A stretch of DNA of 57,753 nt from Candidatus Uhrbacteria bacterium (GTDB taxonomy: Bacteria; Patescibacteriota; Patescibacteriia; UBA9934; CAZDDW01). The notes beneath the pieces are model-generated. The model did not search any database and had not been told where the DNA came from. It saw nothing but the letters and a program-made list of their open reading frames with translations. Positions 4,211 to 45,755 of the stretch are shown here, in pieces. The position numbers and the translations under genes were made by a program. How positions within the stretch are numbered: position 1 is the first letter of the stretch; each line of letters begins with the position of its first letter. The stretch is from contig JBDRNK010000015.1 in the NCBI GenBank assembly GCA_043811105.1, positions 1 to 57,753 on the forward strand. Direction: 5' to 3'.

Positions 4211-7200
4211 ATGACTCATGGTCAAATAAATAAAATAACCAGGATTCTGATCTTAGGACTGATTTTTGTATTTTGTTATTTTTTGTTTATAGTATTGTCT
4301 AGCGCTTTAACTCCTGCCGCTGATTATTCTGTTAATGACTTAGGAGATGGACAAGATAATTTGGCTGGCGATGGAATTTGTGCCACAGCTGAGGGGGTCT
4401 GTACTTTGCGTGCAGCGATTCAGGAGGCCAACGCTACCATAGGTGCAGAGGTGATTGATTTTGCCGGAATTGATACAACCACGCAGCAAACAATCGGTGT
4501 GATCTCGGATCTACCAAACATAAATGAGCAAGTTACAATTACAGCTGAAGAACAATGGGAGGTTGCAGGTAATCGTCCGGGAATTATATTAACAACCTCG
4601 GCCGGAGCAACTAAAGGTTTTTCAATTGCTGATTCAGCGGATGGAACTAGAATCAGTGGATTGAAAATTCAAGGTTTTTCACAATATGGAATTTATACAG
4701 CTGCTGAAAATGGTTTGTTGGGTATGGATTGTATAGGATCACCGGACGCAAATCAGCGGAATGTTGTGGTTGGTAATTTGGTTGCCGGTATATATCTTGG
4801 TCAGGCTGATAATAATATTATTGCCGGAAACTGGATAGGATTGGATGATGATGGAACAACTTCAAGCCCTAATGGTGGAGGCACTTTGACTCACGCTTAT
4901 GTTGATTTGAATCTTAATAGTTCTGATAACAATGTTATTGGTTATGAGGATGGTGATGATTTTCCGGCTTTTGTTTGTACTGCAGAACAGGCTCGAAATG
5001 TGATTGGCGTTGGTGCATATAATGCAATAAATATTGAAAACAGCTCAACCAAGAATAAGTTTTCCGGAAATTATGTGAATGTTTTACCGGACGGTAGCAA
5101 TTCTGTAGCTTATTCTGCTCGCTGGGGTGTTTTCTTGTTTGAAGCCAGTTATAATTGGATCGGTACAGATGGTGATGGTTCAAATGATGATTTGGAAGGT
5201 AATGTTTTTGGTCCTTTTGCTCTAGGCGGGGTTTATGGAAACAGTAATGGAGCGACTTTTTCCGGAAATCGAATTTCCGGAAATATTTTTGGTGGTGATC
5301 CAACCGGAACTTCGGATTTGTACACAGGGGGCAATGCTGAAGTCGGTATTCGTTTAAGTAATGATGCCCAGAATCATATCATCGGTTTTTGTGATAACAA
5401 TGAGGACGGTTTAATTGGTGATGTTGATATGTGTAGCAACGGTGGAATTGTTGCAGATCAGGCAAATTATTTTATCGGTTTAGCTGGGACTACCGGTGGA
5501 ACCTCAAATGGTGTCATTTTGAGCATTTGGAAAAACAACACCAATAACTATGTTTATGGTAATTACTTTGGTGTAGGAACCGACAGTTCTGCAATCGGGA
5601 ACCATTATGGTATTTCTCTTTTTTATAATCTGTTTGGAACCGGCAACTACTTTACTGTCGGAGATCAAGGAGATCGAGCAAACATTTTCATGAATAATCA
5701 GGTTGGTGTAAATATTGAAAACTCAACTGCTGATGCGGCTCTAATGCAATATGTTAAGGTTCAGTATAATACAATTTCTGAAAACATATCGCACGGTGTT
5801 CAGGTTGTGCGTGGAAAACAAGCTCAGACCGTTGATTCCGCGCATGATATCTTAATCGAAAACAACACGATTACTGACAATGGCGGTTCCGGGGTGTATC
5901 TGAGTGGTAGTACTGCCGATATTATCAATAATACAATCACCGGAAATACCGAATATGGAATCTACGCTGTTAGTACATACGATAATCTGGTATCTACTTA
6001 TGGAAAACAGACTGCGCTTGGTGTGGCATCTGATCTTGTACCGGAACCGTTTAATATAGGGGGCAGTGGCTTAGAGAATACTATTTCCGGAAATCTGCTT
6101 GGCGGAATCTATTTTATGGACACTGAGCCGTCTGATCCGGAGACATTGTACACAAACAATATCTTTGCAGACAATAATTCAGGGCCAGCTATTCGTACAG
6201 CTTGGTGGGGAGCCGTTGAATTGCTTGATACAAGTTTAGATCCAGTAATTCTTGGTTCACATACTATTACTTTAACCCCAGACACCGGTTCAGCCTCGAC
6301 AGGGGCCGTAGCTGATACCGGCGAGTTTGTTGGTGAAAATGATACTGAAAGTGCTTGGGGATCTGATGGTTTTGATTATGATGATCAAACGACATGGTTT
6401 ACTTTGGTTGATTATGAATATGCCACAGATGGTATTTTAACCAATTATAATCCATATACGATTTCGGTTAGCGGTGATAATGCCAACGATGATGTTGTTG
6501 CCAGCTTTATTTTTGATGGTAGCGGTTCAGATATCAGTCAAGGTGGATTACCAGTAGGAATTTCTACAGGATCAGGAATCTATCGTTATCAAATAGCCGA
6601 AGCAGTGGTTTCTTCAATTCCTGATCAGCCAATCAATTTATTGCCAAACAATGGAAAAATAAATGAAGTAACGGTTCCAACTCTTTCCACTTCCGCTTTT
6701 TCCGATAGCTCAGAAACACACAGTTCTACTGCTTGGCGAGTTTATTCAAGCGAAGCGCTTTGTCAAGCGGGTGGAACAGGAGACTTTTATGATTCAGGGT
6801 TCATCTCTGATTTGACTTCGCATCAAGTAACCAGTTATTTGTTGCGAGCCCAAGATTTATGGTGGTCAGTGCAATATAAAAATTCATACGGCAATCTTTC
6901 CACGGCTTCAACTTGTACCTCCTTTAGGATTAGAGCCGGGTCAAATACACCGGTACAGTCAAATACCGGGGAATTTTTGGATGAAGAAAGCCTGCAGGAA
7001 GTGATGGAAGATGTGGAGATAATTGAGGTGAACGGAGAAGATACTGATGAAATTACGATTGATATCGAACCAGAACCCCAGCCAGAATTAAAAGAAGAAT
7101 CAATATTAAGTTTCACTTCCGGCAAATATGTAACTAATCAAGATTATTCTGTGGTATATTATCAAAGTCAAGACAATATTTTGTATCCTTTTTATGATCT

Positions 7201-12241: not shown

Positions 12242-12270
12242 TCTACAGATTCTAGAAAATAAGCTATAAT
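12242..12270 (+). promoter_or_regulatory. promoter of leader copy 1
   Basis: TATAAT (12265-12270) with a weak -35 TCTACA at N17. A second candidate, TTGACA (12206-12211)-N16-TAATAT, lies further upstream. Confidence 0.5.
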
Positions 12271-12279
12271 ATACACGAT

Positions 12280-12312
12280 ATGCCCGGTAGTACAACTTTG
12301 AATATTAAGTAG
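12280..12312 (+). CDS. leaderless mini-ORF MPGSTTLNIK (copy 1)
   Basis: The ATG lies 9 nt after the -10 box. The peptide and nucleotides are conserved with the 17943 copy (MPGRKTLNFR...). Confidence 0.35.
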   Translation: MPGSTTLNIK

Positions 12313-12418
12313 CCGGGTGTAAATAAACAGGGTTGCTAAAAACCAACAAAGGCTTTTATTCTTAGCATCTATTATTAAGACAACTTGAGTCCAAAAATTC
12401 AAAGTTGTACTACCGGGT
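12280..12418 (+). promoter_or_regulatory. structured 5' leader, copy 1 (candidate cis-regulatory RNA)
   Basis: 12283-12302 is the perfect reverse complement of 12398-12417. The helix ends 1 nt before the main ATG 12419. A homologous copy lies at 17943-18079. Confidence 0.55.
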
Positions 12419-13987
12419 ATGAGCAAACAGCTCGAAAAACTTATTTCAGCTATTGCTGAAGGACACACAGACCCAACCCCGCCTAAAGGCGAGGTTATTT
12501 CAGTTGATGAAACCGTTTCCAAAGCCGCATCGATTTATGAATCTGTGCGCAACACCCTTGAGTATGACGAAGTACATCGCTTACGCAGTAATGCGATCCG
12601 TCGCATTCTTAAGCGTCATCTTGATGGTGAAGAAGATATGTATGAGGTGGCTCGAGATTTGCTTCATGAATTGATCTGGGCCGGGTATTTGCCAAACAAT
12701 CAGATCGCCACTTCTGTAATCAATGAGTTAGCCGATGTTTTGGGTAAATACAGAAAACTGTTTCAAGTAGCCGGAAAACAAAAAGCTGATCCTGAGGAAA
12801 TGTCAGCTTGGTTACTGGACCTGTTATCAACTGAGGTTGAATATTTGATCAATCCTCCGCTTGAAGCAGAGGGGCTGGCAACTTATGCCTATACCGTAGC
12901 CAAATCTAAGATTGAGTGGAAATCCAGCTTGATAAGAAAAGAGGATCGCGAGATGCAACTGTTTTTGGCTATATACCGAACGTTGCTTCGTTCAAATATT
13001 GCGAGTTTGCGATATCGGGTATTTTTGCTGTTTTATCCTGAATGGCCAAAAGCTAGTCAGGCTTTGATTGAAGATATTGCTGGTAATCTGAGCAAGGTTC
13101 ATGATCATGTAGAAACCCAAGTTAATCATCCGGCCGCTGATTCCCTTAATCGTTTAGTTCGTCGTTATGTGATCATGTTTAATGTTTTGCATGACGTTAT
13201 TGTTAAGGATCCGGAACAAGCAATTGATACCCTAAGTACTGAGGCAGGTCTGAAAAAGGCAGTTAATCAAGCAGCAGCAACTCGATATAAAGATTTTTAT
13301 TCCAGAACCCGGCGCGGAATTATTCGAGCAGTAATTTTCTTGTTTTTTACTAAAATGTTGCTGGCTCTAGTTATCGAGCTACCTTATGATGTGGTTGTGC
13401 TTCAGACTACAAATTATATCCCTTTAATTACCAATATTATCTTTTTCCCAATCTTGCTGGGAATAATTGGAATGACCGTGTCTATTCCACAAAAAAAGAA
13501 CACGGAAATGATTTTTTCAACTTTAAAGGCTGTGCTTTATGGAGAAGGGGATATGTCGCTGGTTTATCGAACCAAACGTCCTTGGCGTTCAACTGCTGGA
13601 CGGATTTTTGATATCTTGTACCTGCTGATGTTTATTGTCTCCTATGGGTTGATTGCCTATGCTTTATATAAGGTTGATTTTAACACTTTGTCGATTTTCA
13701 TTTTCTTGTTCTTCTTGTCCTTGGTTATGTTCTTTGGGGTGCGAATTCGTATGACCAAACGTGATTTGTTGATTGTTAAGGGTCGTGGAGGAATTGGTGC
13801 TGCTTTATTCGATTTTTACTTTTTACCGATTATTCGGGCTGGACGCTGGATGGCTTTACGAGCACCGCGGATTAATGTCTTTTTGTTCTTCTTAGATTAT
13901 ATTGTTGAAGCACCGTTTAAAATGGCAATTGCTTTAATTGAGGGTTGGTTAGCGTTTATTCGGGAAAAGAAAGAGGAGATTGAGTAA
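12419..13987 (+). CDS. hypothetical protein: soluble N-terminal half plus polytopic membrane C-terminal half
   Basis: 522 aa with several hydrophobic helices after about residue 300. I did not recognise a family motif. Confidence 0.7.
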   Translation: MSKQLEKLISAIAEGHTDPTPPKGEVISVDETVSKAASIYESVRNTLEYDEVHRLRSNAIRRILKRHLDGEEDMYEVARDLLHELIWAGYLPNNQIATSVINELADVLGKYRKLFQVAGKQKADPEEMSAWLLDLLSTEVEYLINPPLEAEGLATYAYTVAKSKIEWKSSLIRKEDREMQLFLAIYRTLLRSNIASLRYRVFLLFYPEWPKASQALIEDIAGNLSKVHDHVETQVNHPAADSLNRLVRRYVIMFNVLHDVIVKDPEQAIDTLSTEAGLKKAVNQAAATRYKDFYSRTRRGIIRAVIFLFFTKMLLALVIELPYDVVVLQTTNYIPLITNIIFFPILLGIIGMTVSIPQKKNTEMIFSTLKAVLYGEGDMSLVYRTKRPWRSTAGRIFDILYLLMFIVSYGLIAYALYKVDFNTLSIFIFLFFLSLVMFFGVRIRMTKRDLLIVKGRGGIGAALFDFYFLPIIRAGRWMALRAPRINVFLFFLDYIVEAPFKMAIALIEGWLAFIREKKEEIE

Positions 13988-17932: not shown

Positions 17933-17942
17933 TGCCCCTGCT

Positions 17943-17993
17943 ATGCCCGGTAGGAAAACTTTGAATTTTAGGAAGCCGGATGCAGTTACCTAA
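17943..17993 (+). CDS. leaderless mini-ORF MPGRKTLNFRKPDAVT (copy 2)
   Basis: Same position and the same first 8-10 codons as the mini-ORF at 12280. Confidence 0.35.
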   Translation: MPGRKTLNFRKPDAVT

Positions 17994-18079
17994 TGTTGCT
18001 AAGAAAGAAAACCGTTTTTGGTTTTTAGTAACAGGCCTAATTCAATAACCACCTAAGGTTCAAAGTTTTACTACCGGGT
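17943..18079 (+). promoter_or_regulatory. structured 5' leader, copy 2
   Basis: 17946-17965 (CCCGGTAGGAAAACTTTGAA) pairs with 18059-18078 (TTCAAAGTTTTACTACCGGG) with one mismatch. The helix ends 1 nt before ATG 18080. Confidence 0.55.
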
Positions 18080-18661
18080 ATGAGCAAGGAAATTGTCTTT
18101 GATATTGAGACCCAGAATACCTTTGCCGATGTTGGTGGGTATAACACTAAAGCGCTTAAAATTTCAGTGATAGGCGTTTATTTTTATGAGACGGATACCT
18201 ATGAGGCCTTTGCCGTTGATGAGCTAAATAAACTTTGGCCTCGCCTTGAACAGACTGATCGCTTAATCGGTTTTAATAGCAAGCACTTTGATATTCCAGT
18301 AATGAATAACTATTATCCAGGAGACCTGTCGGTTCTGCCGCATCTGGATATTATGGAAGAAGTGGTTAATACTTTAGGACATCGCCTGAAGCTTGAATCA
18401 ATTGCCCAGGCCACACTTGGTTATGGTAAGAGTGGATCAGGTTTAATGGCGGTTGAATATTGGAAGCAAGGGCAGATGGATGAGTTAAAAGACTATTGTT
18501 TACAAGATGTTAAAGTGACCAAAGAGGTTTATGAGTATGGATTAAAGCACGGGGCTTTGGCTTACCCGGACTTTGGTGGAGAACGAAAGGGAATTAAGGT
18601 AGATTTCCGTCAGCAGTCGATAAAAAATCCAGCCTCGATTAATTTAACAATGCCATTCTAG
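18080..18661 (+). CDS. DnaQ-like DEDD 3'-5' exonuclease
   Basis: Exo I 'VFDIETQ', Exo II 'GFNSKHFDIPVM', Exo III 'YCLQDVKVT'. Confidence 0.7.
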   Translation: MSKEIVFDIETQNTFADVGGYNTKALKISVIGVYFYETDTYEAFAVDELNKLWPRLEQTDRLIGFNSKHFDIPVMNNYYPGDLSVLPHLDIMEEVVNTLGHRLKLESIAQATLGYGKSGSGLMAVEYWKQGQMDELKDYCLQDVKVTKEVYEYGLKHGALAYPDFGGERKGIKVDFRQQSIKNPASINLTMPF

Positions 18662-31871: not shown

Positions 31872-31997
31872 GGGAAAGACGCCCGTAAGGGCGTCAAGGT
31901 TGTGATCTACATTTAAGAAAGCTAATATGACGCCCTGACGGGCGTCTGTCCCACAAAGAAGATTGCTCTCGTGGGGAAAGACGCCCGTAAGGGCGTC
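31872..31997. repeat. REP cluster upstream of the RAYT gene
   Basis: GGGAAAGACGCCCGTAAGGGCGTC / GACGCCCTGACGGGCGTCTGTCCC / GGGGAAAGACGCCCGTAAGGGCGTC. Confidence 0.85.
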
Positions 31998-32003
31998 AAA
32001 GCT

Positions 32004-32543: not shown

Positions 32544-32547
32544 CACT

Positions 32548-32605
32548 GACGCCCTTACGGGCGTCTATCCCCCGAATTAATGGGAGAGACGCCCGTAAGG
32601 GCGTC
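32548..32605. repeat. REP doublet downstream of the RAYT gene
   Basis: GACGCCCTTACGGGCGTCTATCCC and GGGAGAGACGCCCGTAAGGGCGTC. Confidence 0.85.
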
Positions 32606-32616
32606 ATCGTCAGAAT

Positions 32617-45621: not shown

Positions 45622-45755
45622 GGATACGAACTACGAAAATATACGAAAGTACGAAATCGATAAACCACGGCAGTAGAAATAGAAAGGAATGGTGATTATT
45701 GATAGACCTTCTTAGAAAACTTTCGTATTTTCGTACGCTTTCGTAGTTCGTATCC
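45622..45755. repeat. 134-bp element with 35-bp imperfect terminal inverted repeats built from TACGAA words
   Basis: Left arm GGATACGAACTACGAAAATATACGAAAGTACGAAA (45622-45656); right arm TTTCGTATTTTCGTACGCTTTCGTAGTTCGTATCC (45721-45755). Confidence 0.7.

Follow-up and report, generated by a model that had tools for sequence, protein, structure and literature searches.

The Uhrbacteria contig JBDRNK010000015.1 (57,753 nt, hereafter the window, to whose full length all window coordinates refer) contains two short palindromic sequences, at 12279-12421 and 17942-18082, each of which ends exactly on the start codon of a gene. We consider it very probable that they are two non-autonomous copies, similar to MITEs (miniature inverted-repeat transposable elements), of a mobile element of the candidate phyla radiation (CPR, or Patescibacteria), whose parent is about 300 bp long and codes for a GIY-YIG nuclease. 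The 20-bp helix that the initial annotation assigned to a regulatory leader is formed by the two ends of the transposon, which pair in any single strand.

The two copies in the window and their empty sites

Copy 1 is located downstream of a promoter-like sequence of the host, TCTACA-17-TATAAT (12242-12270; this and all the features below are on the plus strand), whose -10 box (12265-12270) lies 9 nt 5' of ATG 12280. This ATG belongs to the first of two TATG target-site duplications (12279-12282) and opens a mini open reading frame (ORF), MPGSTTLNIK* (12280-12312). The left terminal inverted repeat (CCCGGTAGTACAACTTTGAA, 12283-12302) is followed by a non-coding interior (12303-12397), then by the right terminal inverted repeat (12398-12417), which is its perfect reverse complement and ends 1 nt before ATG 12419. 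The latter ATG, in the second TATG (12418-12421), is the present start of host gene 1 (12419-13987), which has no Shine-Dalgarno (SD) motif within 16 nt upstream and codes for a 522-aa protein conserved in Uhrbacteria-like Patescibacteria but belonging to no Pfam family. These elements of the initial annotation are confirmed: the perfect helix, the TATAAT box and its leaderless-type distance to the first ATG, the mini-ORF, and the two smaller helices named there, which are indeed present in the sequence.

The second copy, also mentioned in the initial annotation, has the same layout in front of an unrelated gene. A TATG (17942-17945), whose ATG 17943 opens the mini-ORF MPGRKTLNFRKPDAVT*, precedes the left terminal inverted repeat (CCCGGTAGGAAAACTTTGAA, 17946-17965), an interior related to that of copy 1 (17966-18058) and the right terminal inverted repeat (18059-18078), which abuts the start of host gene 2. 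The present start of this gene is ATG 18080, in the second TATG (18079-18082), and its product is a 193-aa RNase H-like or PolB-exonuclease-like protein (18080-18661).

The arms are 20 bp long, with the consensus CCCGGTAGnnnAACTTyGAA; they are perfectly complementary in copy 1 and have one mismatch in copy 2. The arm pattern, with up to 3 mismatches allowed, is found four times in the window, which corresponds to two arms in each of two copies, when 0.02 occurrences are expected from shuffled sequences and none of 100 shuffles reaches four. The TATG direct repeat, which is flush with both arms in both copies, was missing from the initial description. The two copies (135 and 133 bp, with ORFs of only 10 and 16 codons) have a mean column identity of 78%, and their interiors align with a score of 12, compared to -11.8 ± 4.7 for shuffled sequences (0 of 1000 shuffles reach 12). 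That the interiors are related suggests that a decayed, non-coding element was apparently itself copied, to a second start codon.

Both copies are insertions. An ortholog of host gene 1, with 90% amino acid identity, is encoded on a metagenome contig of 12.5 kb, collinear with the window (L138/L143). There, the first locus reads gaaaataagcTATAATactcttgaTATGagcaaacagctcg / gaaaataagcTATAATactcttgaTATGagcaaacagctcgaaaaactt: the flanks of the window copy are joined via a single TATG and the element is absent. The arrangement TATAAT-N8-TATG is also found at this empty site, which places the ATG of the mini-ORF at the original start position of the host gene, a point where ribosomes are expected to initiate. 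The public call of this ortholog (protein P0121, L138 1501-1542) begins 13 codons early, MACVVKISYNTLD-MSKQ..., and so reads through the TATAAT box. This contig is empty at the second locus too: 20 nt separate the methyltransferase gene from the RNase H-like gene, and their junction, ...attattgtcggacTATGagcaaggaaattg, has one TATG and no element. Copy 2 is present on contigs whose 193-aa protein is identical to that of host gene 2. The first locus is also empty in an outgroup whose ortholog of host gene 1 is 65% identical (L140), which argues for an insertion in the lineage of the window rather than a loss elsewhere.

The window copies thus have inverted repeats, a flush duplication, and a presence/absence polymorphism with a single target at the empty site; they are small non-coding derivatives of a longer coding element with the same ends, and two related copies occur in 57.7 kb, all of which are features of MITEs. 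The initial annotation had taken copies located away from start codons as the sign of a MITE. The MITE is confirmed, but the premise was too narrow, since this MITE sits on start codons.

Folded as RNA, copies 1 and 2 have minimum free energies of -54.2 kcal/mol (z -8.3) and -60.0 kcal/mol (z -7.7), respectively; the value for copy 1 folded as single-stranded DNA is -27 kcal/mol (z -5.9). The helix extends through both flanking TATG (G.U, U-A, A-U, U.G). In agreement with the earlier remark that no known riboswitch or leader family is recognized, the window copies match no Rfam family at the gathering threshold; in E-value mode, the sole match is the miRNA MIR6224, which is spurious (20.7 bits for a gathering score of 171). 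The features of a riboswitch or leader are lacking: there is no conserved core or structure beyond the closing helix, the downstream genes are unrelated and the orthologous leaders do not have the element.

The family and its coding form

Related sequences were searched in a set of genomes, one per species, with the pattern CCCGGTAGNANAACTTTGAA, and in metagenomes, where at least 120 stretches were obtained; the counts below are among the matches listed, and the patterns required conserved arms. The genome scan gave 15 loci, 10 of which have an inverted partner arm 70-200 nt away, and most metagenome matches are likewise paired. These ten paired loci come from Saccharibacteria, Moranbacteria, unclassified bacteria and metagenome-assembled genomes (MAGs) labelled Bdellovibrionales and Gammaproteobacteria, and all show NATG immediately followed by CCCGG at one end, and CCGGG immediately followed by NATG at the other. 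Pairing the arms and removing duplicates left at least 55 non-redundant elements, 37-376 bp long, in which a perfect direct repeat of 4 bp immediately adjoins each arm. No match to the element was found in IMG/VR or among GenBank phages, and a phage origin was rejected on these grounds. The same ends are also present in L008 (contig CAYVOI010000001.1, 876 kb) and in L007/L010 (CAZHDL01), from the MAGs labelled Gammaproteobacteria or Bdellovibrionales; either the labelling or the binning is at fault, or the element has passed from one phylum to another.

The flanking repeat is TATG, or its complement CATA, in 40 elements, and in 33 of these the ATG opens an ORF of at least 80 aa. This is also the case for the repeats ATGA (both of 2 elements), CATG (the only element) and GATG (the only element). 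The other repeats contain no ATG: TAAA or TTTA (5 elements), TATA (3), CAAA (2) and CACA (1). Apart from TATG, nothing is conserved in the flanks, and short copies taken from different genomes have unrelated interiors. Related copies precede dozens of unrelated genes across many CPR lineages. There are tandem pairs in which the middle TATG is shared (L029 2487-2739, L053 1144-1395) and nested elements (L067 735-954, L108 813-1032), some being inside another element with a CAAA duplication. The smallest copy, of 37 bp with TATA flanks (L081 4923-4959, the same as in L100), consists of the two arms alone and has the form of a single hairpin repeat. Among 135 loci, no longer element with these ends was found: lone arms proved to belong to short elements or to be chance matches, and beyond about 600 bp none had a convincing partner. 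A long autonomous partner with a classical transposase was discarded on this basis.

The pairing of the arms was examined over 55 elements: of 1100 positions, 969 are Watson-Crick pairs, 50 are G-T and 81 are mismatched. Positions 9-11 are variable and frequently mismatched, and positions 4, 14, 17 and 20 co-vary between the two sides (position 17 is a T-A pair in 24 elements and a C-G pair in 25). This pattern fits with ends that are kept as inverted copies for recognition by one protein, and does not separate the need for a DNA hairpin from the need for an RNA helix. As to whether the peptide or the pairing is conserved, which the initial annotation had asked, conservation of the peptide is confined to the part encoded by the repeat; within the arm, the third positions of codons show the same conservation as the first two, which indicates that the peptide is not the constraint.

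The full-length elements, of 298-385 bp, have a conserved interior with a single ORF, which is 93-104 codons long except in a longer variant (118 codons). Its product is a single-domain protein of the Pfam family GIY-YIG (PF01541, E about 1e-16, 55-61 bits for a cut-off of 22.6); no NCBIfam family is above cut-off. The AlphaFold2 model (pLDDT 88.5) is that of a bare catalytic domain without DNA-binding domain, whose best structural matches are Slx1 (7cq2, Foldseek E 6.8e-4), the UPF0213 protein BH0048 and I-TevI. By sequence, the only relatives in the PDB are two UPF0213 proteins (1zg2, phmmer E 1.2e-5). Y13, Y24 and R34 do not vary, and the conservation of E70 is at least 90%.

In all seven full-length copies whose ORF opens with a flanking ATG, this nuclease ORF is co-directional with the host gene and in frame with that ATG; it has no start codon of its own, and its stop lies 16-33 nt before the downstream ATG of the host gene. 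The repeat, read as the codons CCC GGT AGT ACA ACT TyG AA, gives PGSTT(L/S)N/K directly after the captured ATG. In L145, TATG is followed by the repeat, the ORF up to its TAA, the other repeat and then the TATG of the host gene, with no spare sequence. In another Uhrbacteria genome (GCA_016208545.1, L144 2500-2810), a full-length element that adds to these seven interrupts the ribosomal spc operon, with secY on one side and adk on the other; it is flanked upstream by TATT instead of TATG and its 3' arm has diverged, and this copy may be heading towards inactivation. The other full-length copy in addition to the seven, before a Wzy gene, has perfect repeats and a perfect duplication.

The mini-ORF of copy 1 has the same start (MPGSTTLN), made of an ATG plus the repeat, as the nuclease ORF, and we read it as a remnant of the latter. 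The 3' part of the interior of copy 1 also weakly resembles the 3' end of full-length elements: in an nhmmer search, positions 259-318 of the full-length profile align to 12361-12417 with E 5.9e-5 and a score of 16.2, compared to about 12.7 for the arms alone. Intermediates (L052, L075, L008, L122 and L129) retain fragments of the ORF in the same orientation.

Among the 120 closest public protein clusters, 76 begin with an MPGST-like sequence. The wider set of small GIY-YIG relatives comprises 18,194 clusters (50% identity) at E ≤ 1e-3 and 4,002 at E ≤ 1e-10, and the MPGST start is found only in the close relatives. A sub-lineage (L023 1284-1620, L068 128-464) has TTTA/TAAA flanks in AT-rich intergenic DNA and a diverged arm on the side of the ORF; there, the nuclease ORF starts at its own internal ATG (MYWVYILE...), which fits with ATG capture being an adaptation of the TATG lineage.

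The ORFs opened by the flanking ATG have genuine N-termini, such as MEVFEIEGGKKLKGE (MurA), MNILSIETSCDET (TsaD), MLHKILLMGPQGSGKGT (Adk), MARVKRGKTAHKRRK (L20), and those of GyrA and GalU. By comparison with the 33 of 40 TATG elements, 25% of all TATG sites in the same DNA open an ORF of at least 80 aa. This control favors chance, inasmuch as internal Met codons are counted, and it is also unfair, since insertions inside genes would be purged; with these two opposed flaws, the size of the start-codon bias is no clean measure of targeting.

A TANNNT box is found 5-10 nt 5' of the first ATG in 16 of 35 host genes, compared to 121 of 773 in a crude control. In the window, an SD motif is present in about 12 of 48 genes, and the organism, which is Uhrbacteria-like, seems to depend to a large extent on initiation that is leaderless or SD-independent. 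The gene starts at 4211, 29857, 38680 (minus strand), 43052 and 55600 of the window have a TANNNT box 6-10 nt 5' of the ATG and no SD.

Proposed mechanism and alternatives

The element, which has neither promoter nor ribosome-binding site nor start codon of its own, enters a 4-bp target, usually the TATG of a start codon, and duplicates it. The upstream copy of TATG retains the promoter of the host gene and its leaderless start or SD, and gives the nuclease ORF its ATG; the downstream copy regenerates the start codon of the host gene. Since a 5'-terminal AUG is all that a leaderless message requires, insertion just after this AUG provides transcription and translation without signals in the element.

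The GIY-YIG protein is probably the mobilizing enzyme. We draw this conclusion by analogy, and of the three steps of the scheme it is the one of which we are most confident. In single-stranded or cruciform DNA, the ends of the element would form a junction with TATG at its base, and the nuclease, like Ssn and Slx1, would recognize the hairpin of the repeats and cut at its base. Next in confidence comes the expression of the host gene: in intact copies, the position of the nuclease stop, 16-33 nt before the host ATG, suggests from the sequence that the host gene is translated by termination-reinitiation. The step of which we are least confident concerns the decayed copies, in which the ribosome that starts at the first ATG may keep the helix open: it would cover the 5' arm before the 3' arm is transcribed and thus keep the second ATG usable. 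On this point the initial annotation had anticipated that translation from the first ATG melts the helix for the benefit of the second one, and in this limited form the idea is still plausible. In short copies, the mini-ORF is 3-65 aa long and the position of its stop relative to the main ATG ranges over -70 to +155 nt; this variability implies that precise coupling is not conserved, and we rejected conserved translational coupling for the short copies.

Other modes of expression were considered and dropped. The host protein is not extended at its N-terminus by read-through, since the second ATG is distributed over the three frames of the first one (12/9/9 in short copies) and there is a stop in every copy. 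Programmed ribosome hopping, of the type of T4 gene 60 or the 'byp' elements of yeast mitochondria, has no support, initiation at the second ATG being simpler. An outward promoter in the 3' arm was searched for by eye, and no acceptable -10 hexamer lies at leaderless distance.

Several observations weigh against the interpretation of the window copies as MITEs mobilized by the GIY-YIG protein. To our knowledge, the GIY-YIG enzymes are hydrolytic nucleases, for which strand transfer has never been described, and a flush 4-bp duplication beside inverted repeats is the product of DDE transposases. A six-frame search with hidden Markov models found no nuclease gene in the 57.7-kb window, so that the source of a mobilization in trans is not seen there, and the alignment that links the window interiors to the nuclease ORF is weak. 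The bias towards start codons may result in part from selection, if intragenic insertions are purged from compact genomes, and in part from ascertainment, the patterns having required conserved arms; besides, the 25% control counts every TATG site, tolerated or not. A helix of -54 to -60 kcal/mol covers the start of the host gene, and in short copies the stop of the mini-ORF is at no fixed distance from it. Last, some of the matches come from the MAGs labelled Gammaproteobacteria or Bdellovibrionales.

The alternative that deserves most consideration, although we find it improbable, is that of an ordinary MITE moved by a DDE transposase encoded elsewhere, the GIY-YIG ORF being a passenger or an addiction gene. 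The flush 4-bp duplication with 20-bp inverted repeats is a DDE hallmark (IS5, IS1380 and piggyBac-type elements make 4-bp duplications), we know of no GIY-YIG enzyme that joins DNA, and the window has MITEs without the nuclease gene. On the contrary, in the 135 loci no convincing pair of arms lies more than 600 bp apart with a larger gene between them, and all long copies, from several CPR classes, have an ORF that begins inside one repeat and ends at the other, which is hard to explain for a passenger. It is also known that the Ssn GIY-YIG nucleases bind and cut beside the hairpin repeats that flank their own genes (PMC11893778). An insertion sequence of the DDE, DEDD, HUH, Ser or Tyr class would have a transposase gene of that class between its ends, where GIY-YIG is the only ORF. 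The integron attC sites were likewise dismissed: the arms have no RYYYAAC/GTTRRRY core sites, and duplications of 4 bp flush with the arms are out of keeping with such sites. A GIY-YIG homing endonuclease gene that is free-standing, with its relics, which would spread by cutting the empty allele at a single locus before recombinational repair, is extremely unlikely, even if this domain is typical of homing endonucleases (PMC1564403) and the host gene survives the insertion. The copies are found at dozens of unrelated loci that share only TATG; neither inverted repeats nor target duplications are homing features; the protein is a bare catalytic domain that lacks a DNA-binding domain; and non-coding copies have multiplied, with two related ones in one window. 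The diversity of the target genes, many of which are unrelated, is sufficient to exclude the element from the class of homing endonuclease genes.

The other alternatives concern the RNA. The helix could be mainly a processing signal, whatever its origin, at which a double-strand-specific RNase would free an mRNA that starts at or near the second AUG. It is established that a perfect RNA helix of 20-24 bp is long enough to be a substrate of RNase III, many host genes look leaderless and the second AUG is directly at the base of the helix; we nevertheless regard this as quite unlikely, since RNase III cuts within the helix, which would leave a leader of about 10 nt rather than a 5'-terminal AUG, and the full-length copies are built for translational coupling (with the nuclease stop 16-33 nt before the host ATG), so that processing is unneeded. 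A T-loop-like TTCRAAG is present in the 3' arm, and the outermost 7 bp look like an acceptor stem. A tRNA-like mimic, from which processing of the RNase P or RNase Z type would leave a 5'-terminal AUG, was dropped, the search of Rfam in E-value mode having returned no tRNA-like match.

The initial annotation put forward the hypothesis of a leader specialized in cis regulation of two genes, conserved for this function, in whose RNA the translation of a leaderless mini-ORF, a ligand or a protein would open the helix that hides the main start. The helix is indeed very stable and covers the main ATG, the first ATG has the geometry of a leaderless-type promoter and the arms co-vary at positions 4, 14, 17 and 20, which is however expected of any transposon with inverted repeats. 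The relative with 90% identity lacks the element at both loci, where its genes are intact, and this shows that what was taken for a leader common to two genes is the insertion of a mobile element. Besides, the interiors are unrelated between genomes, as are the downstream genes, the lengths span 37-376 bp, some copies being tandem or nested, positions 9-11 of the arms are frequently mismatched, the length, the frame and the stop position of the mini-ORF are not conserved, and no Rfam family was matched. We therefore hold a dedicated leader to be very unlikely; a secondary, exapted effect on expression would be compatible with the mobile element.

Returning to the mobile element, we tentatively go one step further and suggest, as a possibility to which we give somewhat less than even credit, that the family is a new class of autonomous transposon and, at about 0.3 kb, the smallest known. 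A structure-specific GIY-YIG nuclease of about 94 residues would act as the transposase, on the hairpin or cruciform of its own ends. The element would have no promoter, ribosome-binding site or start codon; it would land on the TATG starts of host genes, which are often leaderless and often essential, perhaps attracted by the DNA that becomes single-stranded in the promoter open complex, and would take the first ATG and regenerate that of the host.

Comparison with known systems and significance

From its sequence, the element is a MITE with a coding parent that fits no known class of transposase, and the Ssn/SRM system is the most similar to it. We found no description in the literature of such an element or of its expression strategy. 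The Ssn nucleases (cd10448) are bare GIY-YIG proteins of about 94 residues, which bind single-stranded DNA at a hairpin repeat and cleave it a few nucleotides upstream (PMC11893778); the authors noted that the repeat-gene-repeat layout resembles an insertion sequence, but mobility was only hypothesized (Chenal et al. 2025, Nat Commun, PMC11893778). In both systems the protein has a single domain and about 94 residues, with a similar spacing of the catalytic residues (Y6/Y17/E64 in Ssn, Y13/Y24/E70 in the element), the gene is flanked on both sides by its cognate repeat, and the repeats also occur without the gene; as regards the protein, the comparison is one of size, layout and residue spacing. 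The differences lie in the repeats: each Ssn flank is a self-contained hairpin of 20-50 nt (NTS/SRM), whereas the flanks of the element are half-sites that pair across the gene, the repeat sequences are unrelated and the arms of the element are unlike the NTS consensus. Moreover, the Ssn paper is silent on start codons and duplications, whereas the ORF of the element begins inside the repeat and borrows the host ATG.

The Ssn authors also compare their system with IS200/IS605 and REP/RAYT (PMC11893778), to which the element described here is similar in that it is very small, in the recognition of hairpins at the ends, which is probable for the GIY-YIG protein, in the 4-5-nt target and in that hairpin-only derivatives multiply. 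The enzyme of these systems is an HUH tyrosine nuclease-ligase, not a GIY-YIG protein. They have sub-terminal hairpins, and are not known to have terminal inverted repeats or to make a target duplication.

Like the Correia elements (NEMIS) of Neisseria, which are bacterial MITEs transcribed together with adjacent genes, the window copies are short and non-coding, with inverted repeats and a target duplication, and the family has many copies near genes, which form long hairpins in mRNA. Correia elements, however, duplicate TA and are not known to be positioned on start codons or to have a GIY-YIG gene as their parent, while the insertion of the element on the start codon is exact to the nucleotide and regenerates that codon. 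The best structural and sequence relatives of the protein, Slx1 and the UPF0213 proteins (YhbQ-type), are cellular repair or uncharacterized proteins, which are not known to be mobile or bounded by inverted repeats. Slx1 cuts branched and stem-loop DNA at the junction, and this is the activity that is needed to cut at the base of a hairpin. The homing endonucleases I-TevI and Seg are also encoded by selfish GIY-YIG genes, located beside or within host genes that remain intact, but they have DNA-binding domains and use one cognate site by recombination, with no inverted repeats or duplication.

The window contains other repeats. A palindrome with different ends lies at 45622-45755: its 35-nt arms, GGATACGAACTACGAAAATATACGAAAGTACGAAA and the reverse complement (89% complementary), are separated by 64 nt, and it ends 12 nt before ATG 45768, which opens an ORF of 618 aa; it may represent a second family of MITEs near a gene start. 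A GC-rich, self-folding repeat of about 25 nt, GGGAAAGACGCCCGTAAGGGCGTCA, is found in several copies and in both orientations in intergenic DNA at 31872-31998, 32547-32606 and about 1600-1630; this REP-like hairpin has the same kind of form as the repeats that accompany Ssn nucleases.

Regarding annotation, the consequence is that hundreds of CPR/Patescibacteria genes have a palindromic insert of 37-376 bp exactly at their start, and that the coding form of the element accounts for thousands of small ORFs which begin with MPGSTTS... and are annotated as 'GIY-YIG nuclease family' or 'hypothetical'. The neighboring genes are already given wrong extensions or wrong starts by gene callers, as is the case for P0121.

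If the nuclease moves the element, it would bring a nuclease class into the small set of enzymes that move DNA, and the Ssn nucleases would gain the role in mobile elements that their discoverers only suggested. The economy of the arrangement is that the repeat doubles as the first seven codons of the ORF, and that the duplication leaves both the parasite and the host with a start codon. Last, a helix of -54 kcal/mol over the start codon is tolerated by essential genes (murA, adk, rplT, gyrA and tsaD), which makes reinitiation and leaderless initiation testable in CPR bacteria.

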